Origin: a virus
Lineage: Duplodnaviria; Caudoviricetes
DNA length: 64,000 nucleotides
Virus record (IMG/VR): IMGVR_UViG_3300043466_001519
Coordinates: 32,001-96,000 of that record
Reading direction: 5' to 3' (one strand)
The notes under the pieces were generated by a model. That model made no database searches. It was given only the letters and a program-made list of their open reading frames with translations, and had not been told where the DNA came from. Positions 19,336 to 64,000 of the stretch are shown one piece after another (the first letter of the stretch is position 1; each line of letters starts with the position of its first letter). The position numbers were made by a program, and so were the translations under genes.

Positions 19336-20550
19336 ATGTCTGAAAATCAAAGCTTATTAGGTCAATTGGAAGAACTACTTAGACAAAAAAAGAGTAAAAA
19401 ATTCTATGCTGAAAGACTTGGAATAAGCGAGTTTGAAGTTAATGAGCTTTTAAAAGAGCTTAGGGAAAAAGACAATGAAGATGTAATAAAAACTATTGCA
19501 GAAGAACGCAAAGTAAATGTTGAGAGAGGTACAATAGAGAGTACAATTGTATCTGACTTTGATCCTAAAGATGATCTTGAGTTAGCTAAGCTACACAAGA
19601 TAAACTTAGACAAATATGTAATAACAAACTATTGGTCTAAGATGTTACCAAGTGGTAAATTTACTTCCTCAGTGTTTTCAAAAAGAAAACAAGCAGAAGA
19701 TTACTCTCCTGAAGACTTTGCTAAGTTTTTAGAAAACTACAAACCAACTAACATAGAAGTTAAAAAACCAAATCCATTAGCTAATAAAGATCATGTAGAT
19801 GTAGAAATCTCAATAGCAGATTATCATTTAGCTAAGAGAACAGTAGATGGTGATAATGACCCAACAACTAGAGCTTTAAGATATGTTATAATGGCTCAGT
19901 CTTTGATTGAGAAAGTTAAAGCAAACTACAACATAAACACTGTTGTTCTACCTATATCAAACGATTTCTTCCACACTGATAACTATCAACATCAAACTAC
20001 AAACGGTACTCCACAAGACACTATAATGGATTATGCAGAAGAATATGAATTAGGTTTTGGAGTTCTTGTAGATACAATCAATATGTTGAGACAACATGCT
20101 AACAATGTCACTGTTGTTCTTGTACAAGGAAATCATGACAGAACTAAATCTTATTATCTAGCACATGCATTAGATGTGTTCTTTAGAGATGCATTAGATG
20201 TAGAGTTTATAAGAGAACATTCTGTTATAAAAGGAATCACATTAGGAAATACATTTATTGGATGGCACCATGGTAATTGTAAGATAGAAGATCTTCCATT
20301 ATTATTTGCAACACATTCTAAATATAGTCATCAATTTGGTGATGCTGTTTACAGAGAAGTTCATACAGGCGATAAACATCACTATATGGCTAAAGAAGTG
20401 AAGGGAGTAAGAATACAACAAATGCCTAGCTTATCTGGAACAGATAGATGGCACTTAGATAATAACTACGTACATTCAGTGCGTGCAGCTCTTGCTTTAG
20501 TCTATGATCGTAATCTAGGTAAAATAGCAGAGTTTGAAACTCGAATATAA
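19336..20550 (+). CDS. Calcineurin-like metallophosphoesterase with N-terminal HTH
   Basis: ADYH, NDFFH, QGNHD, HHGN and HTGDKHH motifs; YAERLGISEFEV HTH. Confidence 0.85.
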   Translation: MSENQSLLGQLEELLRQKKSKKFYAERLGISEFEVNELLKELREKDNEDVIKTIAEERKVNVERGTIESTIVSDFDPKDDLELAKLHKINLDKYVITNYWSKMLPSGKFTSSVFSKRKQAEDYSPEDFAKFLENYKPTNIEVKKPNPLANKDHVDVEISIADYHLAKRTVDGDNDPTTRALRYVIMAQSLIEKVKANYNINTVVLPISNDFFHTDNYQHQTTNGTPQDTIMDYAEEYELGFGVLVDTINMLRQHANNVTVVLVQGNHDRTKSYYLAHALDVFFRDALDVEFIREHSVIKGITLGNTFIGWHHGNCKIEDLPLLFATHSKYSHQFGDAVYREVHTGDKHHYMAKEVKGVRIQQMPSLSGTDRWHLDNNYVHSVRAALALVYDRNLGKIAEFETRI

Positions 20551-30769: not shown

Positions 30770-30770
30770 A

Positions 30771-31457
30771 ATGGTAACACAAGATTATAAATATCAAACT
30801 ATAGAAGGTGTAGTAAACAAAAGATGTTCAAGATGTAGAGTTTTTAAACCTATTACTTTTGAGTATTATGCTAAAGGACAAGATAGTAAATATGGAATTA
30901 AATCACATTGTTTAGAATGTAACGACAAGCCTAAATTTAACTTTCCTAACTTTAATGAAAAAGGGTTATTATTTTGTAGAAAATGTGAAATATATAAAAC
31001 TGAAGAGGAGTTTCATACACAAAAAGAAAACAAGCATAGAAATGGTAAAACTAGTCATTGTAAACAATGTAATAATGATTATAAAACTAATTTTAGAAAA
31101 TCTACAAAAGGTGAAGACTTAGAGAGACATTTAAGTAAAATACTTTCTACATGTAAACTTAGAAGCAAAAAATTAAAATTATCAAGTTTTGAATTTGAAT
31201 TAGATGTAAATTTTTTAAAACAATTATTTAAAACACAAAATAAAAAGTGTAAATTATCTGGACTAGAAATGACATATATTATTAACAATGGTAAATCCAT
31301 ATATAATATTTCTGTAGATAGAATTAAAAGTAATAAAGGATATACAAAAGACAATGTACAGTTAGTTTGTAATCAAATTAATACAATGAAAAATTCTTTA
31401 GAAGAAGAGGATTTTTTATTTTTTTGCAAAACAATAGTTAATAATTATGAAAGGTAA
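30771..31457 (+). mobile_element. Free-standing HNH/EndoVII-like homing endonuclease with two N-terminal Zn-finger repeats
   Basis: CSRC..CLEC, CRKC..CKQC and CKLSG...SVDRIKSNKGYTKDNVQLVCNQINTMK; Lys-rich; inserted among cargo genes. Confidence 0.8.
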
Positions 31458-46800: not shown

Positions 46801-49800
46801 TTTTAAATCTGTAACGGTTGCTGACGTATTAAGTACAAATGAAAATATAGGATATGATGTTCCTTATGAAGAAACAGATGGAGCAGGATTGATTACACTT
46901 AAAGCATACAGAGTATTTGCTTTAAGAGCTGGTACATGGACTGCTAATAATGAAAAACAATATAGATTTGATGTAGCATTTGAAGAACTTGTTAAATCAG
47001 GTGCTGATGAAACTGCTATTAAAAAATTCTTAAAAGGTAATCCAGGAATTAAAGATACATATACACCTGTTAAACCTATTGTTAGAGGTAATAAAGAGAA
47101 TGGTAGAACTTATAATGATATTGTATTACACAAGTTTGCACTTGCACCGCTATCATTTAGAATACTTTATGAATTAAATCCTGAGTCTAATGCTATCAAG
47201 TTGTATAATAAGATGCAAAAAGAGAATATAGATTATGCTGTATTTGCTTCAGGAGGTAAAGTGGGTAATGAAAAAATATCTCCTTTGTATAAAGCAAATG
47301 GTGAGTTTGATAATACACCATTTGAAGATGCTGCAGAATTAAAAGGTAATCTAAAAGATAATGTTAAAAGAGCTGTAAGTAAAATACCTTTTACTATTGT
47401 AGCTGTACAATCAGAAGTTCCTTCTAAAGATGCTCCAATTGTTACACAAGGATCTCAGATTACTAAACTTGCCACAATGGATTATTTAGAATCTGGAGTT
47501 CCTGTAGATTTTATGCCTGGAAAAGAATTTGAAGAAAGATTCATTGCTTGGTTAGGACTTGAGGATAAATCAAGCTATAACGATGGTAATAATATTTATA
47601 ATGAAATTATAAATAATCAAAAACTTTTAGAAGCTAGAATCGAAGATGCTGTAGAATCTTTATACAAAAAACTTGGTATTGAAGAAACTATAAACGAAGA
47701 AGGAGATAGAGAGTGGAGAATAGAAGATAGAGATAAATTAGTTAACACTCTTACAGAAGAAATTGGTAAAAGAGAAATCAATTATAACATTACAGATGCA
47801 TTTGAAGGATTTGTGAAAGGTGATGTTATATTAGAAGCTACTCCTGTATATCAACAAGTAAGAAACATTCTTTATTCTATTGCTGATAAAACTATTGTAC
47901 GTCCTAAAATATCAGGAGGTATGAAGGTGCAAGTATCTTCTGCATTGTTAGAATCTGTAAGAGCAGAAGGAAAACCTGTATTAGATAGTAAAGGTAATCC
48001 AACATTTAATAAAGATGGTAGTCCTAAACTTGTTTATTCTTCAGAAGAATTAGCATTCTATAAAAATGAAGATGGTAAGAGAGTATGTGAGATAATGCTT
48101 GGTAGATGGTTTAAATCTAATAAATCAGATGCTGAGTTAATGGACTATTTTAATAATGATCCAGAAGGCAAGAAAGAATTTGAAGCTCTTATGGGTGTAG
48201 CATTTCGTATTCCTACTCAGAAACAAAACTCTATTGATGTATTTAAGATAAAACAATTCTTACCTAAAGACTTTGGTGACTCAGTAATTATTCCTTCAGC
48301 TCTTGTTAAGAAAGCAGGATCGGATTTTGATATTGATAAGTTATCAATCTATTTGAAAAACTTATATACAGATGGTCAAGGAAAATTAAGAGTGGTTCCT
48401 TTCTTTGGATATGGAGAACAAGCAAAAGATAAATTTAAAGAATTATATGATAAAAAGTTATTTGGTAAAATAGATACAACAACATCTAAAATTTTTAATC
48501 AAGATGCATTAAGAGAGTTATTTAGAGATGTTTCTTTTGGTAAAGCTTCATCTACAGCAATGGAAAAATGGGTTCCTATTTTCAAAGAAATGTTTGAAGA
48601 AGCAATGATAGATGATTCATTAGCTACAAATATTGTAGAAGAAATATTCCAAGATAGATTTGAGAGTTTAGGTAAAAAACTAGATGTATTAACTAATGAA
48701 GATTTACAAAAAACATTATCTAAAATATTTGTACAAGACATGTATAAAAAATCTTTAGAGAATGCTTATATACAATCATTAGAAAACCTTATATCTAATT
48801 CATTGAACTACGAAAACTTAGTTAAACCTAATGATGCAACACCATTAAAAAATCTTTCTGAGAAGATTCAAGAAGAGATGGGTTATGATAAAGCAGACTT
48901 TGGAAATGTAGGTAATATGTTAAGTAGAGGATTTATGTCTAACTTGAGACAATCTTTTGTTGGTGGTAAACAAGCATTAGGTATTGCTGCTCAAGGTCAA
49001 ACAGGACATGCTCAAAGACAACGTAGTGTTACATATGTAGATGTAGATAGATTACAAGGTGACTTGATTGATGATGTAGATAAAACTATTCTTGGTAATG
49101 ATCCAGATTCTAATTTGTTTGCTACAGATACAGACATTAACTTTCAAGAATATAATTCTGCCACTATAAATGGTGTAAAAAGACCAATGCTTTCTTGGAT
49201 TAAAAATAAAGCAGGAGAATATATATCAGACATTAATGGAATGTTTATTGATGGATATGTGGATATCTCTAAAGGTGACTGGATTATCAAACTTGGTGCA
49301 ACTACTAATACAGCTTCTACATGGTTATTTTTAATTGATCTTGGTGTGCCTATTGAAACTGTAGGATATTTTATGAACCAGCCTATCATTAAAGACTATT
49401 TACGTGCTATTGAGAATAAAGGTTATTCATGGTTGTACATAGAAGATATGATCGCAGATAAATTAAATGATTATAGTCCTAGTAAAGAGTTTTTAAAATC
49501 AGGTACATCTGTGAAAGGAATTCCTTCAGAAACAGATTTATTCAAAATGCTTAAATATAATAATGCAGTTCCTAAAGCAAACATGACTGATCTTCAAAAG
49601 CTACAACAACAATATATGTTGAAAGAGTTCTTGAAATATTCTAAAATGGCTTCTCACATGTTTAATGTATCACAGGCTTCTAACTATGACACAGCTACAA
49701 TTAATGATCCATATTTAGTATTTAAGAAAATGGTTCAATTAGAGAAAGCAAGAAAAACCATTATATCTTCTGTAGATGATATAATTTCAGGATCTTTTGT

Positions 49801-51094
49801 TAAAGAATTAAAAGATAAGATATTTGACTATAGAGATGCATTCTCTGAGGTGTTAATGTCAGATAGAGGTAATGTTAGACAAGTAATGCAAAATGTTTTA
49901 GAGCCATATACAGATATGTCTGATAGAGATTTTGTTAAGCTTTCACAAAAAGCTGTAAATGATCTTTTTGATTGGGCTGTACAAACAAAAACAAACGTTA
50001 ATACAAAGATAGCTACAATATTATTAGGATCAGAAACAGAGAAATCTGCTGCTGAACAAATTATTGATTATAGAGACTCTATATTAGGCAATCCTGTAAA
50101 AGGAATAGCTCCTAAACCAGAACATAAATTATTCAATAACATCATTCTTAATTCGTTATCTATAGATCAAAACGATAAACAAGGAGGTAAAAAAGGTGCT
50201 CCTGTTAATCTTATATTAGACAATAGAGAAAACAAAGTGGCTGACCAAAACTTAACAATATATGGATTCAATGAGTTAAGAGAAACATTGAAAGAAGAGA
50301 ATAATTTAAAACTTTATGGTAAATTAACTAGACTTGCATTGTTGCAATCTGGTCTTACTAATTCTCCTATATCATTCACTAACTTACTTCCTTATAATGA
50401 TTTTAAAGGATTGTATCAAGATACCTTGTCTATATTAGAAAAACTTCCTAACTTAGCAAAATTTCAAGAACTAAATGTTTTTGAGAGAAACAATTGGAAT
50501 AATAGTGATGTAGTTACATATAAAAGAGCTACGTTATATTTTGGAGAAGATTACGTATCTAATTTAGATATAGATACATTAATCAAACCATTAAAAACTG
50601 CTGTAAAAAATAATGTTATTCCTAAATTAGTTGGACTTAGTCCAATGTCAGAAGCTGGTAGATCAGATTTCATTGTTTATTCTTATGAAGATGTTATTTC
50701 TTCAGAGCAAAGAATACTAAGAAGAAAAACTGGTAATACAGAACATCAACATAAAATGCTAATGCAGAAAGTGTATACAATAGATGAGAATAATAAAAGA
50801 GTTCCTCTTCTTCATATCACTGAAAAGAATGGTGTTGTTTATACTAAACATGTATATAAAGCAATCAATGCATGGGGTGATTCATTTAGAGCACAAGAGT
50901 TTTATACAACAAATCAACAATCAGTCCTTGACAATGGATTTGATAAAGTGAATGAAGTGGAAGATGATGTTATTGTAGATATATATAATGGTGGTGCTGT
51001 TACTTCTGTACCAACTATAAGTGAAAAACCTAGTACAAATGATGTTGTAAATGCACTTAATAAAGATAACATAATAGATAAAAATTGTAAATAA
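37871..51094 (+). CDS. Giant virion-packaged DNA-dependent RNA polymerase (phi14:2 gp66-like polyprotein)
   Basis: 4407 aa; catalytic GSDFDIDKL (DFDID at 48323-48337), FRIPTQ, ETDGAG; N-terminal hydrophobic segments; degenerate zincin HEVFE. Confidence 0.92.
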   Translation: MAKESFNFQGEEIIASNLGGVKPQLPVYNTPLPNFTNIDGEIGKRSVDDIFSNALLQNADSRIESIPLSSISTDKRYPYVFRGSNPEEMYAQQQQWTEKAFNDTLKFTNLVGTTIAGGFGMMYGVGKWALPGGKFSDIWENEAMQGLDEWNTKLDNEILPNYYKQSETDSEWYDKDNWLTANFLFDKLFKNSAYAFGAMLSGNIANGLIGTAGAGIGEWATAQALASDAANASRAFKMFTPMLRSTARAFSAGKNIEAAQVLTSELSSIADASVKSSKLFDIAKQANKFAGVNDFGRKTAIAAYSSAGEASFEALNTSKHFREKLINDYFYENGVMPIGEELEKINNVSREVGATSFLGNMALLTVTEFNQLKYLMGSSYRESKRMANSLIGETDDIILKDKKYALDTPDTKRGKIYQSTLKTAKNIVTGKATYAFDTKEALQEMSQYALEIGVQNYYDKAYKGQEAENIVDKYLDIAGYGLFGRDAEGEGVGALVSKEGIESGVIGGITGGLMQARGQYSQAKERKTNTEKLIEQLNSGASFKDAFVDKLQSVNRGVQLQKEQEAAIINGDKLEYYDSKTDTLHNYLATRVKFGKFDMIMEDLEELKQMASSEEGLESLKTQGYGNINDNIQSFNKTLTQIQDSAKAMSELYSYVNLTYGGQTITDDSGKEYKKYSNDVLDKMVYAATKIADYDKRIPLVSESLLKQNILINDVISEVISNPKSDRLTEEIKNIDGLDPNVYTKDKKDQLKNDLLETVELALRRKKFISDYNDIITSPENYKEVEKTKLDENGNIVPKETITVKVKDGKTGQVVDKKIEIGTEYLLGKVVKYDKDGNEVIQDPVLTILADNGDGTYKIKDNKGIRDVSAQVLEDYQLSKLSDIKSDKKKNYVYVNRNNTFSNKLIKDANGNPVIGRLEYTANKDRLIFVYKNEKGKVIRREVYNNMFKAKEGFKEAIITKVGEYTAEEQQAAEEFVNAPTTISQRLQTRNNIMLDLYDKSVKRLDEITKKLSTSKERTAKAIEALENQLAAESLTKAGKPRKNQTPAMKKIINELSSLQELITKENEQLLSEKEELESNIPFFKEFLDNLDSLPESGREMINLLKSDINTLEDLIDITNKAIKDNDSLLKQIEDALMKALSIFNDYIKRLKQENPGVPLFIDDLQANLEKVLGEEGAQYYIDNKQGITSQVVELESDINDFSAELKIPALNKKAEELVKDITDLKEGLDKLVSEQIAKQEILSAFQQFAIDTERQKQEAAQMQRNVTLGQELLGTLTGSVQNFFGTRPYEQEAKKDKLAVVGSTKPFTEDTAERPLPGYAARVNHFGARVSDMDNVDDLRGVIVTANTEDQILSGLTEAFISEDIPGNTPADIKRKEDIRKEVIFLVVTENGQLVDKDGKLIPGKSAEETQEEYNKRLYNNAIFQVFPSASLTSKGQDGKVGSMFRDTVPQYERDSLKEQYKAWRETQLANTTLDKKGQKFKTSFGNLEFVKYKNADGTISNDTSARTSAQDAGLLDKGILNRDAVITVATTNDDKSEGSVSFKSPKGRVFLRIPGQGLVRLYNKKFNKDESETIFDAMLNLAKNASANGSLYGNEKEEVNKNILNWLKSVVYWGIAKYPDGTRKPAGYNNIWFEDVLENGKPVKKLFMSGLQKESQAYFDFTPQGLINSKQDILGLLGQMYANTDAKKVNIDTYNAPYDEILRFDNLGNPVTRTWPNYQTYLLSGNIVDKDGNVIGKRTGKEIPLTTQVRPLTSAEDTNRKGVYFTLNSSVEYTVPAAPVVAPVVVTPTPTPAPVVTPQQQPTTPGQYDLNGTTENSITIGGKPDGKGGVTPIYNINFTFDISKISEYLKGLTDFTSLYENGALTKEFLNILKDNKVVTYIDTTDNTNGISAFVKAVGENTAEAVSLNKIFEAVAPQIVSEMIPVQPAIADEAPVVESPVVQPEGPVSDIENNEEVITPEEVVPTTELPEGFINLDDIEDVDVDRSEMRVAQAIDKLDQFKTEDWTKLEEAFAKMLPNIPFYRVKNMIKGTNGRQAWGMLHDAAIYVYENAEEGTAYHEVFEAVWKMFAGPAQKQAIINEFKARKGTFVDRESGKTIEYKNATAYQIKEQLAEEFREAVLNDKLGVPRESKTLIGRLFSQLIDAIKAFFTGENAQRNTKELFNRIGNGYYAQFNPYETQLSYAKKGIIDIENAQANADSEMRSTTIPEIEMHDIIQHMTFLTLTRLSLNNESVFTINDQKESELYPALKLGILKLLAGQKKLNNILVTEGKTTLEKATRLNNNIDTLSYNIQMEWAEITKNHKAHLKTFDVQFDESDDSILNSEENTGRGEPDGSNKIDSYRKANAALKLVLSTLPVTQVVNGRIDWFPSSIGGVTLIPADQIHIDLKSNLHSSMDIEDMLLGLKTMAENNPNYNALFRRLTGNSADVGLDINTIQEHDFQLAAALWKSISMQNPDVITVFLQEDGDVVVSNSTLSSAAKQAKKEMINDIISTLKADQSKYFRYVPATGKYYAKDNLKALQFDGANLKQYVDFLNSIGIQFNERDVADLKSDQISAFKKSVGYIREELSKVGDTKIVRDANNNDVEEDGGITTINTKTLNIDGDLLRLAIVKAVIENTEFQSTYFNINGERTQSFIGTNLISALHNTLSRLKNIEELQNDPRYKRFAYLAANNDAFVQGSQVLKKMFDIVGPDSTGKRRSGAEELLKPVIVDGIVDEETGKKKEASKVTYRQRLIQEVNLNLSGIFMNLVPGDASLEHAIRMYNKENPFVSENELSNKNYLDIFKDYFISEVELAKENRNTAKDNGKDLRFFKAILGDDVHKKIASKINKSTDAEQLYKDNEQAINSAVEAFIKQETADTEELLRAYDIITIEDSIVKVDKVNLFKKGEAVTQAGLNTKLKALSINYIIANIEMHKLIYSDPYQYNDELKRIKNFTSPGQPLVPSSQAIDARLNEIYNKGFKPGDIGYTDMTQDYFKSVTVADVLSTNENIGYDVPYEETDGAGLITLKAYRVFALRAGTWTANNEKQYRFDVAFEELVKSGADETAIKKFLKGNPGIKDTYTPVKPIVRGNKENGRTYNDIVLHKFALAPLSFRILYELNPESNAIKLYNKMQKENIDYAVFASGGKVGNEKISPLYKANGEFDNTPFEDAAELKGNLKDNVKRAVSKIPFTIVAVQSEVPSKDAPIVTQGSQITKLATMDYLESGVPVDFMPGKEFEERFIAWLGLEDKSSYNDGNNIYNEIINNQKLLEARIEDAVESLYKKLGIEETINEEGDREWRIEDRDKLVNTLTEEIGKREINYNITDAFEGFVKGDVILEATPVYQQVRNILYSIADKTIVRPKISGGMKVQVSSALLESVRAEGKPVLDSKGNPTFNKDGSPKLVYSSEELAFYKNEDGKRVCEIMLGRWFKSNKSDAELMDYFNNDPEGKKEFEALMGVAFRIPTQKQNSIDVFKIKQFLPKDFGDSVIIPSALVKKAGSDFDIDKLSIYLKNLYTDGQGKLRVVPFFGYGEQAKDKFKELYDKKLFGKIDTTTSKIFNQDALRELFRDVSFGKASSTAMEKWVPIFKEMFEEAMIDDSLATNIVEEIFQDRFESLGKKLDVLTNEDLQKTLSKIFVQDMYKKSLENAYIQSLENLISNSLNYENLVKPNDATPLKNLSEKIQEEMGYDKADFGNVGNMLSRGFMSNLRQSFVGGKQALGIAAQGQTGHAQRQRSVTYVDVDRLQGDLIDDVDKTILGNDPDSNLFATDTDINFQEYNSATINGVKRPMLSWIKNKAGEYISDINGMFIDGYVDISKGDWIIKLGATTNTASTWLFLIDLGVPIETVGYFMNQPIIKDYLRAIENKGYSWLYIEDMIADKLNDYSPSKEFLKSGTSVKGIPSETDLFKMLKYNNAVPKANMTDLQKLQQQYMLKEFLKYSKMASHMFNVSQASNYDTATINDPYLVFKKMVQLEKARKTIISSVDDIISGSFVKELKDKIFDYRDAFSEVLMSDRGNVRQVMQNVLEPYTDMSDRDFVKLSQKAVNDLFDWAVQTKTNVNTKIATILLGSETEKSAAEQIIDYRDSILGNPVKGIAPKPEHKLFNNIILNSLSIDQNDKQGGKKGAPVNLILDNRENKVADQNLTIYGFNELRETLKEENNLKLYGKLTRLALLQSGLTNSPISFTNLLPYNDFKGLYQDTLSILEKLPNLAKFQELNVFERNNWNNSDVVTYKRATLYFGEDYVSNLDIDTLIKPLKTAVKNNVIPKLVGLSPMSEAGRSDFIVYSYEDVISSEQRILRRKTGNTEHQHKMLMQKVYTIDENNKRVPLLHITEKNGVVYTKHVYKAINAWGDSFRAQEFYTTNQQSVLDNGFDKVNEVEDDVIVDIYNGGAVTSVPTISEKPSTNDVVNALNKDNIIDKNCK

Positions 51095-54000
51095 TGAGTT
51101 GTATAATAACATATAATAATCAACAAATGACTCAAGAGGAATTTGTTGAAAAACATATTCCTAAACAAGGAGAGATTATAGAATATGACGGAGTTGAATA
51201 TATGGTTCATGATTCTAATCGTGTAGGTTCTCAGTTTTTAAATCAAGAAGCTCTCTCAGAAGAATCTTATAACACACAGTATGAAGCAATAGGTACTGCT
51301 GATCAAATTCCATTTTATAATTTAGATCCTGTAGGTAAAGGAACTGTAGAATTAGGATTTGATCCAATTTTTAATATACCTCTTACTGCTCTTTTACAAG
51401 ATGGTTTTACTAAAACAGGTAAAACTTTTGACTATGAACAATATAAAAATGTATTTGGTCAAGGTTCTGCAGAACAAGACTTAATGTTTCAATCAGAAGA
51501 TATGCCTGCATCTAAAGCTTCAGAAGAGACTGTAGCTATAATGAGACAAGCTGCAGAACAAATGGGTATTGATATTCAAGACTTATTAGACTATGCTAAA
51601 TCTAATCCTGAAATAGATGTAAAAAATGTAAATGGTCTTGCTGATATTATAAAAGGAGCAGTGGCTATTGCACAAGGTAAAGAAGGTGTAGCATTGGTTG
51701 AAGAAATAGTTCACATTACAACAGCTATATTAGAACAAACTGATCCAAAGTTTATAACAGAACTTATTAGTAAGATAGATAGATTTAAAATCTACAAACA
51801 AGTGCTAGCAGTTTATAGTAAGAAGAAAGAATATCAACTAGCTAATGGTAAACCTAACATTAGAAAGATAAAGAAAGAAGCTGTAGATAAACTTATATCT
51901 GAAGTGGTAATTTATCAATCTGAGGGCTCTACAGAGTATCCAGAACTAATGGAAGAGGAAACTAGAAACATGATTCAGAAGTTATGGGAAATGATTCTTG
52001 ATAAGCTTAGAGGTGTGTATAGAAAATCTAACATTGATATATTCCAAACAGCAGGAACAATAGTTAAATCTGGTAAAGCTGGTACAGTTGCTGATATAAA
52101 AACTGATGGAATTTATTTTCAAGTAGATGATAGTGTAACAAATAAAATTACTGACTTTTGGAATAAGGCTAAAGAGTATTCTAAAGATATGATATTGCAT
52201 CCTGAAATAAAAGATGCTCAAGGTAATATAACTCAAAAAAGACATTATACATTTAAAGGAGAAAAAGTAGCTACCACTATTACAGAAAAAATTAAGAAGA
52301 ATAAAAAATTTCCAGAAAGATCAGAAGCAGATAAAGCTGTAGATGATCAAAAGAAAGATTGGGGAGATGCAGGTCACTTGTTTCAACAACAGGATCTGGA
52401 AACTAATTTCATTGATAAAACTACAGGATTTGCTTATGCACAACCATTAAATAATAGAATAGATTCTAAACTTCCTTTTGATTTACAGAAAAAGTTACAT
52501 AATTTTAATAAAGAGTTAATTGCAAGTTATCCTCCTGGAACAAGATTTCTTATAGAAGAAAAAGTGATCAATCTTAAAGAAAAAGGTATGATTGGTTCCA
52601 CTGTGGATTTTAAAGCCATTTATCCTGCACAAAAGAAAGATGGAAGTTGGGACATGAAAATTGATAATCTTGACTGGAAATTTACCACTGTAGATAAAAC
52701 CAGATATGATGATATATCAAGAGATAAAATAAAAGACTGGGTTCCTCAAATGGGACAGTTTGTTGCTATTGATTATACATATGGAGCTAACCAAAATCAA
52801 ATAGGTAAAGCTCGTATGATTCCTTTTATAATGAATTATAATTATAGAATAGCAGGAGATAAAAAATCTGGATTAGTTCCAGAATCTATAGAAATAGGTA
52901 AATTAGATTCTCTTAAGGAAACTAATCTTTATTTACTTCCTGTTCCAATCTTATCTGAAACTACAGGTAATGAGCAAGTAGATAAATTAATTAATTCATT
53001 ACAATCTCAATGGGATAAGTTATATAGTAAACCTGTAACATTTGAAGGAAAAGATAAAAGAATTGCTGACCTATCTGAATTAAGTAAAGCTATTCGTTTC
53101 TTACATTTAAAACTTGATTTTGAACCATTAGTTAATGTTGGTAAAACATTTTTAAACAATGCTGCTGATGTATTAAAAGACTTTAAAAATATAAAATTTG
53201 CAGAGCTAAATGATGTAGAATTGAATAAAAAATTGGAAGACTTGATTGCTTATGAAGAAGGAGCAAAAAAATATTCAGATTTAGATGAAGCATTTCTTTC
53301 ATACTATCCTAGAAAAGAATTAAATTCAGAAGGACAAAAGATAGTTAATGATCTTACTAATATAGGAAGAGCTACAGAGAACATGATTAAAGAGATAAAA
53401 GATCTTCAGAAACAATTTGTTGTAGAAATAGCTTTAAGAGAAAAGTTTACAACAGAAGATACACAATTATCTGTATTAGATGCAGAAGCTACTATCTCTG
53501 GCATAGAGAAATCTTTTGCAGAAGGAAGTAAACTATCTTCTAAATTGATAAACTTAGCTACTAATTTTATAATGGTAGCTAAAAAAGTTGTTGATGGAAA
53601 AATTAGAAAACAAATTAAACAATTTGGAGAGTTAATTGTTCCATTAGAACAAGAAGCAAAAGCTAAAGGAGTAAAAGCTTTTGATATGATAGCTACAAAA
53701 TCTGACAAAGGACTTTCTCTTATCAAAAAAATTAATCCAGAATTTTGGAAGAAGGTTAATAAAGCTAAAGAGGATAAGAACAAACAATTCTTTTTAGATA
53801 ACTTAAATCTAGATGAGTATAATGCTTTGGCCAAAACAGCTATAGAACAAAGAATAAGTGATGCTAGTAAAAGACAATATGCTTCAGATCCAGAAACTAA
53901 TGAGAGATATAAAGAATATGCTATAGAAGCTGTAAAAAATGCATTAGATATAACTAGTGACTCTTTTAATGGATATAATGATAGAACGTTTGGTTATTTA

Positions 54001-56133
54001 TTTAACAAATCTTTTAAAGAAGAGAAAAACTACTCAAAGGAATACTTAGAAATGTCTAAAAGTAAAGCAGCTTTAGATGTTTGGAACTTTTTTACTAATT
54101 TAAATAAAAGAGCAGAATCAATGGGTTACATTGGTGAACACCAAGATTCATTCTTTCCGTTAATGGAAGCTACTATATTAGAAAAGTTTTATCAAACTAG
54201 TAATATAGGATTTCAAACAAAAGATTTCTTTCAAGATTTTTACAAGATAAAAGTTAATGAAGAGCAACAGTTTTCTAAACTTGATCCTGAAACAGGAAAA
54301 GTCAAAAAGATTATTCCTAAATTTTTTACAAGAACAGATAAGGCAGTTGAACAACTTTCTACAGATCTTAATAAAGTGGGAAGTCTTTGGATTAAATCAT
54401 TAGAAGAATATGAGAGTAAAAAGAACTTAGAAAGTGTATTAACTACATTACATTCTGTAGAGAAAGCCAAAGGAAGTCTTATTGTGGAAAATGGTAAAGT
54501 GGTGTTTGAAAATAGAATAGCTAAAACTAATGATTCTGAAAACAAAAATGCAGATTTATTACAAGTAATAATTGATGATGAGTTGTATGGATTAAGAGAA
54601 AATCAAAGTTCATTAGGAAACATTGCTATTTCTGCACTGTCTTCTAAATTAGGTAAAACAGAAGAAGGAGTTGAGAAATTTGAGGTGGGTACAAAGAAAG
54701 TGATTGCTACAGCAGATACATGGGTACAATCATTAGCTGTAGGACTTAAACCAGCAATTGGTATAGCTAACTGGTTTGGTAACCAATTCTTAGCTTTTAT
54801 ACAAGCAGGTGGATTTTATAATTTTTGGACTGATTTTGAAAAAAATAATGTAAGAGTTTGTACAGGTCAAATGTCTACTATAGAAAGAGGACTTTTAGAT
54901 CTTATACATCCTTTAAATGAAGATGTAACAGAAGAAGAAAGAAGAAGTCTTGCTTGGAAACAAGGATTTACTAAATATCTTTCTACATGGTCTTTTACAG
55001 ATGTGATGCAAATTACTAACTCTTTTCCTGAAAGAAAGTTACAATATGCTAATGCATTAAGCTTTATTGATAACTCAATTGTAATTGATGGTGAGATTCG
55101 TAACATAAGAAAATATTTAAAAGAACAAGATAGAAAAACTAAATACAATCTATCTGTTAGTGAAAGAAAATCATTAGAATCTACATTTGAAAATAGAGTG
55201 ACTGAATTAAAAAAAGCTCCAAATGCTTTAAAGAATATAGCAAAGATAGAAAATGGAGAGGTAGTTATACCAGGTGTAAGTGATTTAAACATTGCTAAAT
55301 TTAGTTTACAAGTATCAGAATATGGTAGAACATTGAATGGACAAATGAGTCTTACTAATAAAGCTGATTATAGAAGAGATACAATGTTCAGTTCATTTAT
55401 GATGTTCAAAAACTGGATACCTAAATTAGTTACTGCTAGAGGTATGGATATTAAGAAAAATGTTGAACTTGATACATGGGAATATGGTAGAACAAGAGCA
55501 TTTTTTAAAACAGTTGCGTTCTTAGGTAAGTCAAATATAACATCTATGATTGATATCATTAATGGTACTGAAAAAGGACTTAAGATATTAGATGAGTTAT
55601 TAGAAGCTAAGAAGATAGAACATTACAAAAAAACTGGACAAGAGTTAGAAATAACACAAGAAGAGTTTTATGATCTTATGAGAGAACAATTAGTTAATCA
55701 ATCAAAAGAGTTTGCTTTATTGTTTGGAACATTAGCCTTAGTACTTGCTGCAGCAGCAGCAGAACCACCAGAAGATGCAACAGATGCTGAAAAAAATGCA
55801 TATAAATGGTATAGTAAATTGATAAATAAAATTTCTGATGAGGTGTCATTTTATTACAATCCTATATCATTTGAGTCTATAACTAAAGGAAGTTTACTTC
55901 CATCTGTAGGACTCTTATCTAAAGGATTAAAAATTGTACAGCAATTATCTTTAGAAGGATATGGTATGGCTACAGATGATGAAGAAATGATGAAGAAAGC
56001 ACATGCATTAAAATACGCATTCAATATTGTTCCAGGACTATCTCAATTACAAAATGAAGTACTTCCTTATTTGTATCCAGAATTAGCAAAAGAACAAGGT
56101 ATACGAGTTACTGGTGAATCTAGAAGACAGTAA
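51094..56133 (+). CDS. Large virion cargo protein with a PD-(D/E)xK-like nuclease region and degenerate zincin motif
   Basis: WGDAGH...IGSTVDF...LDWKF...QMGQF; LVEEIVH; follows the vRNAP as in crAss-like phages. Confidence 0.65.
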   Translation: MSCIITYNNQQMTQEEFVEKHIPKQGEIIEYDGVEYMVHDSNRVGSQFLNQEALSEESYNTQYEAIGTADQIPFYNLDPVGKGTVELGFDPIFNIPLTALLQDGFTKTGKTFDYEQYKNVFGQGSAEQDLMFQSEDMPASKASEETVAIMRQAAEQMGIDIQDLLDYAKSNPEIDVKNVNGLADIIKGAVAIAQGKEGVALVEEIVHITTAILEQTDPKFITELISKIDRFKIYKQVLAVYSKKKEYQLANGKPNIRKIKKEAVDKLISEVVIYQSEGSTEYPELMEEETRNMIQKLWEMILDKLRGVYRKSNIDIFQTAGTIVKSGKAGTVADIKTDGIYFQVDDSVTNKITDFWNKAKEYSKDMILHPEIKDAQGNITQKRHYTFKGEKVATTITEKIKKNKKFPERSEADKAVDDQKKDWGDAGHLFQQQDLETNFIDKTTGFAYAQPLNNRIDSKLPFDLQKKLHNFNKELIASYPPGTRFLIEEKVINLKEKGMIGSTVDFKAIYPAQKKDGSWDMKIDNLDWKFTTVDKTRYDDISRDKIKDWVPQMGQFVAIDYTYGANQNQIGKARMIPFIMNYNYRIAGDKKSGLVPESIEIGKLDSLKETNLYLLPVPILSETTGNEQVDKLINSLQSQWDKLYSKPVTFEGKDKRIADLSELSKAIRFLHLKLDFEPLVNVGKTFLNNAADVLKDFKNIKFAELNDVELNKKLEDLIAYEEGAKKYSDLDEAFLSYYPRKELNSEGQKIVNDLTNIGRATENMIKEIKDLQKQFVVEIALREKFTTEDTQLSVLDAEATISGIEKSFAEGSKLSSKLINLATNFIMVAKKVVDGKIRKQIKQFGELIVPLEQEAKAKGVKAFDMIATKSDKGLSLIKKINPEFWKKVNKAKEDKNKQFFLDNLNLDEYNALAKTAIEQRISDASKRQYASDPETNERYKEYAIEAVKNALDITSDSFNGYNDRTFGYLFNKSFKEEKNYSKEYLEMSKSKAALDVWNFFTNLNKRAESMGYIGEHQDSFFPLMEATILEKFYQTSNIGFQTKDFFQDFYKIKVNEEQQFSKLDPETGKVKKIIPKFFTRTDKAVEQLSTDLNKVGSLWIKSLEEYESKKNLESVLTTLHSVEKAKGSLIVENGKVVFENRIAKTNDSENKNADLLQVIIDDELYGLRENQSSLGNIAISALSSKLGKTEEGVEKFEVGTKKVIATADTWVQSLAVGLKPAIGIANWFGNQFLAFIQAGGFYNFWTDFEKNNVRVCTGQMSTIERGLLDLIHPLNEDVTEEERRSLAWKQGFTKYLSTWSFTDVMQITNSFPERKLQYANALSFIDNSIVIDGEIRNIRKYLKEQDRKTKYNLSVSERKSLESTFENRVTELKKAPNALKNIAKIENGEVVIPGVSDLNIAKFSLQVSEYGRTLNGQMSLTNKADYRRDTMFSSFMMFKNWIPKLVTARGMDIKKNVELDTWEYGRTRAFFKTVAFLGKSNITSMIDIINGTEKGLKILDELLEAKKIEHYKKTGQELEITQEEFYDLMREQLVNQSKEFALLFGTLALVLAAAAAEPPEDATDAEKNAYKWYSKLINKISDEVSFYYNPISFESITKGSLLPSVGLLSKGLKIVQQLSLEGYGMATDDEEMMKKAHALKYAFNIVPGLSQLQNEVLPYLYPELAKEQGIRVTGESRRQ

Positions 56134-57908: not shown

Positions 57909-58337
57909 ATGGTAACAAGTGCTCAGTGTTTAAAAAAGTGGGGTGACCCAACTGTTACAACCAACGAGTTAAAATATATGACTGTATGGGATGTACCTGC
58001 TCATTTAGAGATAGGTGTGATACCAAAGAAGTTATATTGTAACAAAGAGATGATTGGTCCATTAATGCAAGCGTTCTCTAATATAATAGATAGAGGACTT
58101 ATAAATGAACTAAAGACATGGGATGGATGTTTCAATGTAAGAAAGAAAAGAGGTCTTAATTCATTATCTTTACACTCGTGGGGAATAGCTATTGATATAA
58201 ACGCAGCATGGAATGGATTAGGTAAAACACCTACAATGTCTGCTAAATTAGTAAAGTGCTTCACTGATGCAGGATTTGAATGGGGAGGCACATGGACACG
58301 TAAAGATGGAATGCATTTTCAATTAAATAGAATATAA
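57909..58337 (+). CDS. Endolysin, M15 family Zn peptidase
   Basis: R...SLHSWGIAIDIN...WGGTW..DGMHFQ. Confidence 0.88.
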   Translation: MVTSAQCLKKWGDPTVTTNELKYMTVWDVPAHLEIGVIPKKLYCNKEMIGPLMQAFSNIIDRGLINELKTWDGCFNVRKKRGLNSLSLHSWGIAIDINAAWNGLGKTPTMSAKLVKCFTDAGFEWGGTWTRKDGMHFQLNRI

Positions 58338-60130: not shown

Positions 60131-61147
60131 ATGAAAGATTTAAAATTTGTTCAATGTTGTCCAAGTGACATCTATTACACATGGCAAGTAAACTTATGGA
60201 TGGAAAGTCTAAAAGAGATAGGACATTCTGACAAAGCAATCAATCTTATATTCACTCCTAAAGGAAGAGAGAATAGAGATAAGTGGAAACAAATTGAAGA
60301 GTTGTATCCAGAAGCTGAATTTCATTTCTATGAAGATGAAGACAACTTAAATAGATTAATAGGAATATACATTCCTGTACTTAGACCATATGTTCTTTGG
60401 AAACATTTTAAGAAACATCCAGAACTAAGTGAGAAAGCAATCTTCTATTGTGATTCTGACATTCTATTTATGAAAGACTTTAATGTAGATCAGTTTTTAG
60501 AAGATGATATAAACTATCTATCAGACACAAATAGCTACATCAACGCTAAATATTTTGATAGTAAGATACATCAAGTGTTACCAGAGAAACTAGAAGAGTA
60601 TAAAGGTAGAGATGTTCTTGCAGAAATAGCAAGTGTTATTGGAATTAGTAGAGAGATAGCTGAAGCTAATAATGATCATTCAGGAGGAGCACAATATTTA
60701 TTAAAGAATGTAGATGCTGATTTCTGGAGTAAGGTGATGAATGATTGTATTCTTATAAGAACCTATTTACAAAAGATAAATAGAGAATTCTTTAAAGATG
60801 AAAACTCAGGGTTTCAAAGTTGGTGTGCAGATATGTGGGCTGTCTTATGGAACATCTGGTTAAGAGATCAAGAGACAAAAGTGGTGAGAGAATTAGATTT
60901 TGCATGGGCAACAGATCCTATTGTAAAATTAGAGTCTCACACAATCTTTCATAACGCAGGAATAGTTTCTGAAACAGGAAATGGATACCCAGCTTTCTAT
61001 AAAGGTAAATACCACATGGGAACTGATCCAACAAAAGATCCATATTTAGAAACTGTATTGAATGATGAGAATTCTAAAAAGTTTTGTACGTGGTTTTATG
61101 CCACTAAGCTAAACGAAATAAAAGAAAAATATAACCTAAACTATTAA
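60131..61147 (+). CDS. GT-A fold glycosyltransferase resembling GT95/GT96 protein O-glycosyltransferases
   Basis: YYTWQ, YIPVLRPY, DxD in FYCDSDILF, GGAQYLL, WCADMWA and IFHNAG; no signal peptide or TM. Confidence 0.75.
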   Translation: MKDLKFVQCCPSDIYYTWQVNLWMESLKEIGHSDKAINLIFTPKGRENRDKWKQIEELYPEAEFHFYEDEDNLNRLIGIYIPVLRPYVLWKHFKKHPELSEKAIFYCDSDILFMKDFNVDQFLEDDINYLSDTNSYINAKYFDSKIHQVLPEKLEEYKGRDVLAEIASVIGISREIAEANNDHSGGAQYLLKNVDADFWSKVMNDCILIRTYLQKINREFFKDENSGFQSWCADMWAVLWNIWLRDQETKVVRELDFAWATDPIVKLESHTIFHNAGIVSETGNGYPAFYKGKYHMGTDPTKDPYLETVLNDENSKKFCTWFYATKLNEIKEKYNLNY

Positions 61148-61169
61148 CCATAAATTAAAAAAAGAAAAA

Positions 61170-61379
61170 ATGGGAAGCATTAATTCAAGACCTTTAAAGG
61201 CTTATGTTAGATTCGATGGATCTGGCAGAATAGTTGCAGGAAGCTTAATCCTTAGAAAAAATAAGCCAAAAGTAGGAAAATGGAAAGAGATTCCAGCATA
61301 TGAGTGTTGTAATTATACTACTACCACTACTACCACTATAGCTCCTACAACAACAACTACTACAACTAGTATTGTTTAA
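61170..61379 (+). CDS. 69-aa protein: VRFDGSGR domain plus two T7 tracts
   Basis: ...YECCNYTTTTTTTIAPTTTTTTTSIV. Confidence 0.75.
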   Translation: MGSINSRPLKAYVRFDGSGRIVAGSLILRKNKPKVGKWKEIPAYECCNYTTTTTTTIAPTTTTTTTSIV

Positions 61380-61389
61380 ATTTTATAAT

Positions 61390-62922
61390 ATGGCAACTAA
61401 TAAAAGAAATTTAAAAGCTTTTGTAAGATTTGATGGTTCAGGTAGAGTTATACCTGGATCATTAATTTTACAACGCCATAAACCTAAAGTTGGAAATTGG
61501 AAAGAGATTCAAACATATGAGTGTTGTAATTATACACCTACAACCACCACTACAACAACTCCAAGATTTTTTCCTAGAGAATATTGTGTATGGTCTACAA
61601 ATTTTTTAGAAACATCAGAATATAATTTAGCTACAAATAACATTTATAATGTTTCTATAGATAATGATTTTACAGGAGTTGTAGGTATGACATCTACATC
61701 TACAAAATTATGGAAACGTGATTTAGCTACCAAGTATATTAGAGAATGGTTTATAAATTCTTATCCTGCTTCTCTTACATATAATAGAGAAATAAGATAT
61801 AGTATTTTTGATAATGTTATACTTAACAATGTTATAGTAGCAATAGATAATAATACTATTGTTAGTACAAGAAATATTTCGAATGAGACTTATCCAAATG
61901 GAATTCCTGGAGCAGTGTCTTTGGTAAAATATGATATATCTACAAGTTATGCAGGATATGGAACTAATGTATTTTCTATAATTGCAACACATAATGCATC
62001 ATCGATAATATATACTACAGATAATAAATTTATAATTGTTGCATCTAGATTGATTGATGATGTTCCTACATTTTATTTAACTCAATACTCTTATCCAGAT
62101 GGATTAAAAGAAGTAGATATTAGTTTAGAATCAATATCATTTAATCCTTCAGCAACTGAGTTAAATATTAATGTAATTACATATAATAATGAAATTTATC
62201 TCATAAGAAACAATGATAGTTCTTTATTCAAAATAGAAACTACTTATCCATATAATATAACAGAGGTTACCTCTGATTTAGGTTGGGAAGAAATTAGAGT
62301 GTTTCATTCCTCAACTGGAGAATGTAATAATGTTAGTTTCACACCTAGACTTCCTCAATGTGGTACAACTATTCCACAACAAGGAGAAACATTTACTTAT
62401 TTTGGAGTGACAGGAACTGTTACAACACTTAGTGGAGGTATAGCAAACTTCTCATATCTTGCCCAAGGATATTTTGCAGAGTGTTCAGGATTGTGGCAAC
62501 CTCCATATAGTTGGATTGCAATTAGCCCAGCACCTTCTACAATTGTATTAACATTTGATAGTCCTATAAATGATGTAGCTATTGTACTTAGTATATTAAA
62601 TCTTGGAGATAATTTTACTATTACAACAAATACAGAAATTCCTTCTATAACTATGTCAAATAGTTGTTATGCAAGTGTTTCTGGTAATCAAATAATAAGT
62701 GAACCAAGTATTTCATCTAATGGAGGAAGCGGACAATTTGTAATTACTTCTATTACCCCTTATACAGTTTTAACTATACAAGCTACAAGTGGTGGAAATG
62801 GTGGTCCTATTGGATTAAGTTGTGATCCTAATGCTCCAACTACTACCTCAACAACAAGTAGTACAACAACATTGGCTCCAACAGGATTTAATACAATTTA
62901 TACACATTTTGAAAGTTTATAA
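61390..62922 (+). CDS. Virion accessory protein: VRFDGSGR domain, T7 linker, beta-rich domains, Thr/Ser tract (start corrected to 61390)
   Basis: N-terminus paralogous to 61170..61379; CCNYTPTTTTTTTP; CDPNAPTTTSTTSSTTTLAP. Confidence 0.75.
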   Translation: MATNKRNLKAFVRFDGSGRVIPGSLILQRHKPKVGNWKEIQTYECCNYTPTTTTTTTPRFFPREYCVWSTNFLETSEYNLATNNIYNVSIDNDFTGVVGMTSTSTKLWKRDLATKYIREWFINSYPASLTYNREIRYSIFDNVILNNVIVAIDNNTIVSTRNISNETYPNGIPGAVSLVKYDISTSYAGYGTNVFSIIATHNASSIIYTTDNKFIIVASRLIDDVPTFYLTQYSYPDGLKEVDISLESISFNPSATELNINVITYNNEIYLIRNNDSSLFKIETTYPYNITEVTSDLGWEEIRVFHSSTGECNNVSFTPRLPQCGTTIPQQGETFTYFGVTGTVTTLSGGIANFSYLAQGYFAECSGLWQPPYSWIAISPAPSTIVLTFDSPINDVAIVLSILNLGDNFTITTNTEIPSITMSNSCYASVSGNQIISEPSISSNGGSGQFVITSITPYTVLTIQATSGGNGGPIGLSCDPNAPTTTSTTSSTTTLAPTGFNTIYTHFESL

Positions 62923-62924
62923 TT

Positions 62925-64000
62925 ATGAATATTGAAGATATAAAATTAAAGGTACAAGAGTTAGCAATATCCACTCCTAACATCAATAGTATATCATATG
63001 GATATAAATTTGTTGGAGGTGAACAAACTGATGAACTTTGTATAATGTATGGTGTTGAACAGAAAAAACCTCTTTCTGAATTATCTGATGACGAAATTTT
63101 ACCTAGTGAAATAGCAATAGGAGAAAATGTATTAAAAACAGATGTATTTGAAGTGGGTGTAGCAGAACAATTAGCTTGTAATGCATATTGTGGACAAATT
63201 GCTGGGCCTAATTCAGCAGTTAATAGAGCCTTTACAAGACCATTGAAAGGTGGTTTATCAATTACATCAACTAATAATATTTCCACTGTAGGTACACTTG
63301 GATTTATAGGTGTACATTCAGAAACACAAACATTAGTAGGTGTTACTAATAATCACGTAATTATCCAAGATGCTTTTTATACATCAGAAAGAAATTTATA
63401 TGACGTTATTGGTAATGAATATTCTCCTATAGATTATGTATACCAAAATGGTGAGAGTGGAACAATTCCTACAAATCCTGCATATACAATTGGACAATCT
63501 TTAAGATATGTTCCTATTTCAAAAAATAACATTAATTACGTAGATGGTGCAATATTTTCTTTAGAAGCTGATGATGTAAATATTGAAACATCGTATCAAC
63601 AAGTTGGAGCTAGTGATTATACACTTCCTCTTCCATTTGCTACTACAGAAGAAATTGATAATCTGTTATCTACAAACCCAATGTTATATAGTTCTGGAAG
63701 AACTACAGGACCTAAAGGTGGAAGTTCTTGTCCAATGAGAGTTTTTGCTTTATTTTCAGCAACAATATTAGCATATAACTTACAAGGAGTTCCTACAATT
63801 TGTCAGTTTCTTGATCAAATAACATTTGTAAAACCTGAAAATGATCCAAGTTTAACAACTATTTGTTCTAATCCTATTTATTCAGGAGATTCAGGGTCTG
63901 CATTAATTGCTGATTTTGATGGAACTAGAAAAATAATAGGACTTGTATATGCATCAGGAAGTGTAGGAGGTATTATTTACTATGGGTATGCAAATAGGAT
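62925..64000 (+). CDS. Trypsin-like (S1, NAL1-like) serine protease, truncated by the window end
   Basis: Missing from the ORF track; manual translation gives RPLKGG, GTLG, TNNHV (His at 63354), VDGA, SGRTTG and GDSGS (63885-63899). Confidence 0.85.
   Translation, partial: MNIEDIKLKVQELAISTPNINSISYGYKFVGGEQTDELCIMYGVEQKKPLSELSDDEILPSEIAIGENVLKTDVFEVGVAEQLACNAYCGQIAGPNSAVNRAFTRPLKGGLSITSTNNISTVGTLGFIGVHSETQTLVGVTNNHVIIQDAFYTSERNLYDVIGNEYSPIDYVYQNGESGTIPTNPAYTIGQSLRYVPISKNNINYVDGAIFSLEADDVNIETSYQQVGASDYTLPLPFATTEEIDNLLSTNPMLYSSGRTTGPKGGSSCPMRVFALFSATILAYNLQGVPTICQFLDQITFVKPENDPSLTTICSNPIYSGDSGSALIADFDGTRKIIGLVYASGSVGGIIYYGYANR

Follow-up and report, generated by a model that had tools for sequence, protein, structure and literature searches.

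What does a phage glycosyltransferase modify when its gene lies among virion genes and directly before proteins with long runs of threonine? The question is raised by a gene at 60131-61147 in a 64,000-nucleotide stretch of the Caudoviricetes record IMGVR_UViG_3300043466_001519 (positions 32,001 to 96,000; hereafter the window). The record is 113,985 bp long and rated 99% complete, and the window is its plus-strand block of structural genes. An earlier note on this DNA had proposed that the phage O-glycosylates its own threonine tracts. Because the enzyme and such threonine tags co-occur in many unrelated phages, the enzyme most likely sugar-coats the virus particle, and we think it probable that it O-glycosylates the poly-threonine tags. 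Below, T7 and the like denote uninterrupted runs of that many threonines, and genomes with or without a member of this glycosyltransferase (GT) family are called GT-positive or GT-negative.

Threonine tracts and their co-occurrence with the enzyme

Translation of the plus-strand frames of the window revealed 22 pure threonine runs of at least five residues (six T5, one T6, 14 T7 and one T8), and composition alone predicts 0.0002 runs of T7 or longer (7.25% Thr, 21,172 residues). No run of five or more was found on the minus strand of the window or in the open reading frames (ORFs) of at least 80 aa in the 50 kb of genome outside it. As the earlier note had described, the enzyme gene directly precedes two genes for proteins with an ECCN domain and a T7 tract, a mini-protein and a fibre-like protein, and six further plus-strand ORFs of the structural module carry threonine tracts in their translations (Table 1). 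The fibre-like ORF is listed from a TTG at 61372; its homologues favour the ATG at 61390. Among the six, the largest protein matches phrog_37948 and phrog_15100 ('virion structural protein'). The 396-aa protein matches no PHROG and no PDB sequence, and its AlphaFold2 model from 27 close homologues reached a predicted local distance difference test (pLDDT) of just 47.6; its Thr/Ser tail is kept in 80 of 80 homologues (76-97% identical).

We compared 80 related viral loci with enzymes 65-100% identical. Runs of at least five threonines occur in 71 of them, and T7 is by far the commonest length among 286 runs (37 T5, 21 T6, 202 T7, 21 T8, four T9 and one T10). In the window and the 80 loci together, 265 runs reach T6 or more; every one lies on the coding strand, and 206 distinct DNA versions with mixed codons spell them. 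For these reasons we conclude that the tracts are selected at the protein level. An origin by chance or as microsatellites is ruled out by the mixed codons, the strand bias and the very low expected count given above. Proline precedes 155 of the 265 runs, the residue that follows is mostly Ala, Val, Ser, Ile, Pro or Leu, and 96 runs end at most five residues from the stop codon. The ECCN domain is present in 77 of 81 sources, nearly always directly downstream of the enzyme gene. Among 145 ORFs with this domain, 97 have a run of T5 to T8 right after it (T7 in 67), and four lack the CC pair. Members of the mini-protein family consist of the domain and one to three T7 or mixed Thr/Ser units, each followed by x-A/T-P; neither the domain nor the first T7 varies among 16 aligned homologues. 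The codon ACC makes up 18% of the Thr codons in tracts (332/1866) vs 4.6% in the long ORFs of the window (61/1322), an enrichment that may serve repeat avoidance or the decoding of long threonine runs.

A tblastn search of 50,697 cultured-phage records (2.3 Gb) detected the enzyme in 77, all less than 60% identical and most from phages infecting Firmicutes. We examined 11 of these enzyme-positive records together with the window's own genome; for five of the cultured phages the 13-41 kb around the enzyme gene were read, and for SAC12B 120 of 136.6 kb (bases 100,001-116,174 left out). These 12 GT-positive genomes have Bacteroidota and Firmicutes hosts and span at least nine unrelated phage groups; they include phages of Enterococcus (VPE25, phiFL1A), Lactococcus (1706), Lacticaseibacillus (iLp84), Staphylococcus (vB-SscS-F1) and Chryseobacterium (MA9V-3). 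The immediate neighbour of the enzyme gene is an ORF with a threonine run in ten of the 12, and in 11 if the (TTVxP)x7 tail of SAC12B is counted. The neighbour in phiFL1A, directly before the enzyme gene, encodes the major tail protein gp50, which ends in T5ST6SST7QASSK (gp45 also has a tagged end), and that in phage 1706 is orf13, a major tail protein ending in T10HHD, with two more tags in the genome. phiCTP1 has tags on the tail tube (..T6V), which is the enzyme's neighbour, and on a head protein and the portal. Capsid and tail proteins of iLp84 end in P/E-T7-SK, and its enzyme gene adjoins a small five-tract protein, iLp84_8. Tail proteins end in T9RHD in bIL285 and in T10AGK in VPE25, where a small T7-VKP repeat ORF lies directly before the enzyme. 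Iacchus is tagged on gp071 and on the neighbouring gp072, and vB-SscS-F1 and TPWB06 on the C-region of a protease, a tail protein (..T9P) and a small repeat protein beside the enzyme. MA9V-3 contains 15 T6 patterns, all on the strand of the enzyme, and again the enzyme's neighbour bears tracts. T7 is the commonest run length in the cultured GT-positive phages (22 of 59).

The GT-positive myovirus SAC12B uses (TTV[KA]P)x7, not T7 units, at the end of its neighbour protein (SAC12B_0175, L221:9422-9979), which suggests that the acceptor motif may be as short as two threonines per repeat. Three small proteins directly before the enzyme were also compared: Iacchus gp072 (L219:19610-19996), iLp84_8 (L086:6504-6881) and the unannotated VPE25 ORF (L218:8462-8617). 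The first two have a short N-terminal domain and then only (T5-7)-VKP repeats, and the short VPE25 ORF has no such domain; by eye, the domain of gp072 contains an FN3-like 'GLSPDTTY' stretch. The annotation 'major tail protein' that two of the three carry looks wrong.

When presence and absence were compared jointly, runs of T6 or longer were found in 11 of 12 GT-positive and in none of nine GT-negative genomes (Fisher p 3.4e-5; 1.2e-4 with the near-identical staphylococcal-type phages vB-SscS-F1 and TPWB06 collapsed), and in the GT-positive genomes they sit on capsid, tail-tube, portal or decoration proteins. The co-occurrence that the earlier note had asked about is thus not random. Absence of the enzyme was judged by profile, with four of four positive controls recovered at E 2e-59 or better, and absence of threonine runs by pattern. 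Four of the nine GT-negative genomes are the nearest relatives by TerL (Leptolyngbya phage Lbo-JY46, Cellulophaga phages phi17:2 and phi4:1, and crAss phage cr50_1), with neither enzyme nor T6 pattern; the other five belong to phages that encode an orthologue of the tail protein of bIL285. Homologues of that protein occur in 203 records, from which six were taken from phages without the enzyme. None of the six has a run of T6 or longer at its C-terminus (five have no run at all, one has a T5), the family profile found no match in the six genomes, and five of these have no T6 pattern anywhere. The tail protein of Ruminococcus phage NatCom_23091 (L210:395-997) ends in ..STTTTTKTS, in a genome with no family member and no T6 pattern; this T5 might be left over from a former tag or serve a different enzyme. 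A generic habit of phages to accumulate low-complexity sequence is an unlikely cause of the tracts, given the nine GT-negative genomes without T6. A survey of 102 phage proteomes names Ala, Gly and Pro, not Thr, as enriched in low-complexity regions (PMC6821194).

The search was also run in reverse, from tags to enzyme. A scan for seven consecutive ACN codons yielded 118 viral stretches (1.0 Mb), of which 81 have an in-frame T7; the enzyme lies inside six of the 118, and all six are among the 81. At the level of whole contigs, the enzyme was found in three of 13 further T7 contigs vs none of ten control contigs. The T7 contigs were 15 picked from 56 listed stretches (ORF of at least 130 aa; 13 of at least 30 kb, two shorter), of which 13 were searched, and the controls were ten of 24 listed stretches without an in-frame T7. 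The association is weaker in this direction, and the enzyme is rarely seen without Thr-rich tails. One 76.8-kb viral contig (L094, 74% complete) has three ORFs with runs of T12 to T17 at the very C-terminus, and no member of the enzyme family was found in it; the missing quarter may contain the gene, or the tags may be the target of a different enzyme.

Fold, family and setting of the enzyme

All five motifs that the earlier note had quoted are present in the 60131-61147 product, and its solubility was borne out as well: the highest Kyte-Doolittle mean over 19 aa is 0.89, there is no transmembrane-like segment, and the predicted model contains no long hydrophobic helix. An alignment of 60 sequences has seven invariant columns (Y80, D108, D110, Y136, F257, H274 and K291). 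Both aspartates of the DxD motif are among them, and the equivalent aspartates are invariant in 66 other sequences too. By analogy with GT8 enzymes, H274 is presumably the third metal ligand. No Pfam family matched the enzyme (hmmscan, E 1); its sole match to a sequence family is phrog_4417 ('unknown function'; E 2.1e-56, residues 4-313 on profile positions 1-279 of 293). The family comprises 2744 proteins at E of at most 0.001 among 3655 candidates, in 781 clusters at 50% identity. As regards solved relatives, phmmer gave 0 hits, and the 60-sequence profile gave just two chance matches, both designed proteins. Eleven of 21 longer homologues are fused to GT2, GT32-like, GT6, methyltransferase (Methyltransf_24) or radical-SAM/SPASM domains, and among 66 further representatives Glyco_transf_7C was found in five, GT2 in three, GT6 in two and GT29 (sialyltransferase-like) in one. 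That radical-SAM and SPASM domains are fused to P0287 and to a member of alignment A4 hints that the family may also work in peptide-modifying gene clusters.

AlphaFold2 on the 60-sequence alignment gave a model with pLDDT 96.8 and a predicted template-modelling score (pTM) of 0.93. Foldseek returned 273 matches at E of at most 0.001, and the best PDB hits were glycogenins (E 5e-7, template-modelling score (TM) 0.43-0.47 on the query, identity 8-13%). A structure aligner independent of Foldseek found 107 chains with Z of at least 8, and the best 50, which we inspected, are mostly GT-A glycosyltransferases with some nucleotidyltransferases and phosphotransferases lower down. They include glycogenin (Z 14.5; root-mean-square deviation 3.9, 234 aligned), the Skp1 alpha-galactosyltransferase (alpha-GalT; Z 14.2), the lipo-oligosaccharide enzyme LgtC (Z 13.8), the UGGT catalytic domain (Z 13.5), the O-antigen enzyme WbbM (Z 13.4), GlyE of serine-rich-repeat glycosylation (Z 13.2), LARGE1 (Z 12.7), GT6 enzymes (Z 11.7-12.1), the capsid-glycosylating A64R of PBCV-1 (Z 11.1) and TarP (Z 9.5). 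The GT8-type structures (glycogenin, Skp1 alpha-GalT, LgtC, GlyE and an Anaerococcus GT8) cover Z 12.7-14.5. Those from glycogenin to A64R are, as far as is known, all retaining enzymes, and several target proteins or glycoproteins. Among predicted viral structures, two 'uncharacterized' family members matched well (TM 0.83 and 0.70), followed by GT8-like proteins of giant viruses at TM of about 0.45. Based on this model we are confident that the enzyme is a GT-A fold glycosyltransferase, and it is probably metal-dependent and retaining. The earlier note had named matches to DNA-, lipopolysaccharide- or capsule-modifying families as evidence against its proposal: the best matches are indeed mostly protein- or glycoprotein-directed retaining enzymes, not DNA-modifying ones, but LgtC and WbbM stand in the top six.

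The sequence-level placement is less clear-cut. The GT8 family of Pfam was absent from the matches of the enzyme (E 1), from the 25 families listed for the 60 aligned members (E 5) and from those of the 66 further members (E 0.01). The likeness to plant GT95/GT96 enzymes, which the earlier note had based on shared motifs, found no confirmation for this enzyme. The Pfam model of hydroxyproline O-arabinosyltransferases (HPAT; PF23452, cut-off 23.9 bits) matched neither the enzyme (E 1) nor anything in its own genome (E 10), nor the records of five cultured GT-positive phages at E 10. What is left are weak leads to a possible remote kinship: HPAT is the top weak Pfam family, with two of the 60 members at a best E of 0.012, below threshold (2/126 representatives overall), and none of the 66 further representatives at E 0.01 or of ten at E 1. 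In a protein atlas built on a language model, HPAT is the commonest Pfam label among named neighbours (22 of 30), and in the two HPAT clusters listed there between 10 and 58% of members carry it.

The label 'crAss-like', which the earlier note had used, is acceptable in a loose sense on sequence grounds: the portal matches that of phi-crAss001 (E 1.7e-31), and TerL shares 27.5% identity with TerL of a Crassvirales phage. The major capsid protein has no PDB sequence match. Two ORFs after the tail genes, 37871-51094 (4407 aa) and 51094-56133 (1679 aa), both on the plus strand, contain no threonine run at all and may encode proteins of the ejected or cargo kind that crAss-type phages usually have. 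Within the structural gene block lie a DNA-repair exonuclease gene (19336-20550; phrog_704, E 3.8e-52) and an HNH/endonuclease VII gene (30762-31457; phrog_3322, phrog_1035). Directly after the fibre-like gene, an ORF of the phage protease family phrog_20754 (62925-63998, E 1.2e-18) runs off the end of the window. Beyond the window, the minus strand of the genome encodes a GT2 (102764-103543; PF00535, E 1.8e-10, which passes the cut-off), adjoined by an ORF with sub-threshold methyltransferase matches only (102121-102777); a third gene beside this pair matched no family. The genome also encodes ThyX and a dNMP kinase.

Table 1. Features of the window, with positions counted from its first letter; runs of threonine are given as T and their length
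Feature	Position	Strand	Remark
Large terminase	3783-5810	+	
Portal	5812-8397	+	
Major head protein	9841-11403	+	
Conserved structural-module protein, 396 aa, ending ..C-I-T6-SS-APAS-T5-STLIP	13427-14617	+	
120-aa protein, ending ..NP-T7-V	15379-15741	+	
Cys-rich protein, 382 aa; T5 once, T7 four times, plus mixed T/S tract, ending ..T7-IPL-T7-NIT	16914-18062	+	
255-aa protein; T/S/P stalk of ~80 residues (CP-T7-LPP-T7-LPV-T5...T8), then small C-terminal domain	18073-18840	+	
Small protein, ending ..N-T7-VAPS-T7-IVP	18871-19155	+	
Virion structural protein, 1774 aa; T5, T5, T7 and terminal CP-T7-I in last 300 residues	22747-28071	+	
4407-aa ORF	37871-51094	+	
M15 endolysin	57909-58337	+	Pfam
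Soluble GT-A glycosyltransferase, 338 aa, phrog_4417; candidate enzyme for the threonine tracts	60131-61147	+	ATG start; ORF, profile, fold
DxD codons (D108-S-D110), directly after model strand 103-107	60452-60460	+	alignment, secondary structure
Codon of invariant H274	60950-60952	+	60-sequence alignment
Mini-protein, 69 aa; 48-aa 'VRFDGSGR..ECCN' domain, the end reading ..ECCNY-T7-IAP-T7-SIV	61170-61379	+	starts 22 nt past enzyme gene
Fibre-like protein, 510-516 aa; ECCN domain, ECCNYTP-T7-P, 440-aa variable body, C-terminal T/S tract	61390-62922	+	

Probable glycosylation of the tags and other readings

If the tags are the substrate, the soluble GT-A enzyme would use a host nucleotide-sugar during infection and put O-linked sugars on them, the typical tag being Pro-T7 followed by Ala, Val, Ile or Ser, at the extreme C-terminus or between an anchoring and a distal domain. 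Threonine would be the acceptor, and the enzyme would initiate the glycan and not extend it. Many structural proteins would be tagged, with glycosylation before or during assembly, and the glycan might be extended or capped by further enzymes: in the same genome by the GT2 and the possible methyltransferase beyond the window, and elsewhere perhaps by the GT2, GT6, GT29 and methyltransferase domains fused to homologues. Head, tail and fibres would thereby acquire a coat of glycans, which may act in shielding, solubility or adhesion; the 'mucin-like brush' pictured by the earlier note would be one such function. When the enzyme (A1, with Mn) was modelled as a complex together with the 69-aa mini-protein (A2), the prediction scored 0.02, which counts neither way on binding.

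A bolder form of this idea, which we put forward tentatively as a possibility, is that a single dedicated soluble transferase reads Pro-T7 as a portable, length-quantised glycosylation tag, and that this two-part kit of tag and enzyme has spread horizontally between phages infecting at least two bacterial phyla. Any structural protein would then gain a tuft of glycans by acquiring the tag, and the preference for seven threonines would reflect an acceptor groove of the enzyme that acts as a ruler.

Several observations weigh against glycosylated tags. The genome sets are small and chosen by us, and the statistics ignore kinship. Tract and enzyme do not always go together: 44 of the 145 ECCN-domain ORFs have no T5 after the domain, which makes the tract optional, and nine of the 80 GT-positive loci have no pure T5 run; SAC12B is enzyme-positive and has no T5 run in the part read; and in bIL285 the enzyme gene follows an untagged capsid gene. 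Conversely, the GT-negative NatCom_23091 has its T5 at the same tail-protein C-terminus as bIL285, just nine of the T7-bearing stretches and contigs examined showed the enzyme, and three T7 contigs (G002, G006 and G007, 96-100% complete) have no member of the family. Because these three are near-complete, tags do exist apart from the enzyme family, and in enzyme-less phages they are perhaps served by other enzymes or bare. The fold neighbours include enzymes of lipo-oligosaccharide and O-antigen synthesis, LgtC and WbbM. Finally, the link between enzyme and tags is a comparative one, and the glycosylation itself is putative.

Some of these observations would fit an indirect association, in which the tracts are unmodified spacers or stiff linkers and the enzyme acts on a host envelope glycan, an exopolysaccharide or a small molecule. 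Window tracts often lie between domains, where a linker role is plausible, tracts occur without the enzyme, and tract-free variants of the same proteins exist; moreover, LgtC, WbbM and TarP, a prophage enzyme that glycosylates wall teichoic acid, are among the fold neighbours. We nevertheless consider this explanation unlikely. Linkers would leave unexplained the tags at the extreme C-termini of capsid, tail-tube and portal proteins, the mini-proteins whose only payload is a tract, and the all-or-none pairing of enzyme and tags in 21 genomes. An envelope target is further disfavoured by the position of the gene, which in small siphoviruses lies within head and tail gene blocks and not among lysogenic-conversion genes, and by the spread of the family over phages of Bacteroidota and Firmicutes, which to our knowledge have no envelope polymer in common.

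The enzyme could also act on the tags and yet extend a sugar that another phage or host enzyme has placed, as GlyE does with GlcNAc on serine-rich repeat proteins. Its close fold neighbours include GlyE, Skp1 alpha-GalT, UGGT and LARGE1, which all build onto a glycan already in place, and the genome has another glycosyltransferase in its GT2. On the other hand, the stretches from phiFL1A, 1706, bIL285, phiCTP1 and iLp84 contain no second annotated glycosyltransferase, although other GT families were not searched for, and it is the enzyme family that is the constant partner of the tags, the fused or neighbouring glycosyltransferases being variable. An extending role therefore appears improbable to us. 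Glycosylation of modified bases in the phage DNA is brought to mind by ThyX and the dNMP kinase, since such genes are frequent in phages with altered nucleotides; we regard it as very improbable, as the 50 best fold matches include no DNA glycosyltransferase, the gene sits between tail or capsid genes in temperate siphoviruses with genomes of 35-40 kb, and the pairing with threonine tags would be left unexplained.

Known glycosylation systems and implications

Glycosylation of threonine tags by the phage enzyme would have its closest precedent in mycobacteriophages. In these phages, O-glycans were reportedly described by Freeman et al. in 2023 in Cell Host Microbe at the C-termini of capsid and tail-tube subunits, positions that are also those of the tags in GT-positive phages. 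In a more recent account, Che8, Corndog and Myrna are established cases of virion glycosylation, the glycans blunt antibody recognition, and glycosylated phage particles are presented as shown so far for a few mycobacteriophages only (PMC12363180); Corndog is described as having a methyltransferase and three glycosyltransferases among its head genes (PMC4351075). The likeness lies in phage glycosyltransferases, sometimes with a methyltransferase, among structural genes. The differences are that Corndog gp35-38 do not match the enzyme profile A1 (E 10, filters off), that the C-termini of its capsid and tail-tube proteins have no threonine run, unlike those of the GT-positive phages, and that the hosts are Actinobacteria there vs Bacteroidota-type bacteria and Firmicutes here, where glycosylation is putative.

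Other systems share parts of the picture. GT8-type enzymes, several of which modify cytoplasmic proteins, resemble the phage enzyme in fold (Z 13-14.5 over 218-234 residues), in a DxD after a beta-strand and in a conserved His late in the chain; they differ in the low identity (8-13%) and TM (0.43-0.47), in the missing Pfam GT8 match and in about 100 extra residues that do not align. Plant and algal HPATs (GT95) and the peptidyl-serine alpha-galactosyltransferase (GT96) act on runs of hydroxy-amino acids, and plant HPATs are Golgi membrane proteins with a type II anchor, unlike the soluble phage enzyme. The serine-rich-repeat adhesins of streptococci are O-glycosylated in the cytoplasm on long tracts of hydroxy-amino acids; their initiator, GtfA/B, is a GT-B enzyme, and GlyE of the same system is a fold neighbour of the phage enzyme. 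The acceptor there consists of Ser-rich repeats over hundreds of residues of a secreted adhesin, vs the short, mostly T7 tags on virion proteins here. A64R of PBCV-1 is likewise a virus-encoded soluble GT-A that glycosylates the virus's own major capsid protein, on N-linked atypical sequons; it belongs to a eukaryotic giant virus without threonine tags, and it is a more distant fold match. In the literature, with subscription journals and supplements thinly covered, we found no description that links poly-threonine tags with a phage glycosyltransferase, and the accessible text of a 2024 review of viral O-glycosylation mentions phages 0 times (PMC11139210).

If the enzyme does glycosylate the tags, many phages would be sugar-coated, including lactococcal dairy phages, candidates for therapy against Enterococcus and Staphylococcus, and abundant environmental crAss-related phages. 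Cultures exist of several GT-positive phages, so the idea can be put to a direct test. Such a coat would matter for how the immune system recognises therapeutic phages and for their pharmacokinetics, for how particles adhere to mucus or matrices of polysaccharide and for how stable they are, and could explain otherwise unexplained masses and densities in proteomics and cryo-EM. A short encodable tag with a single soluble enzyme would also be a tool for glyco-engineering in bacteria. Should the tag prove to be portable, virion glycosylation would be common in phages of the gut, of dairy and of aquatic habitats and no peculiarity of actinobacteriophages.

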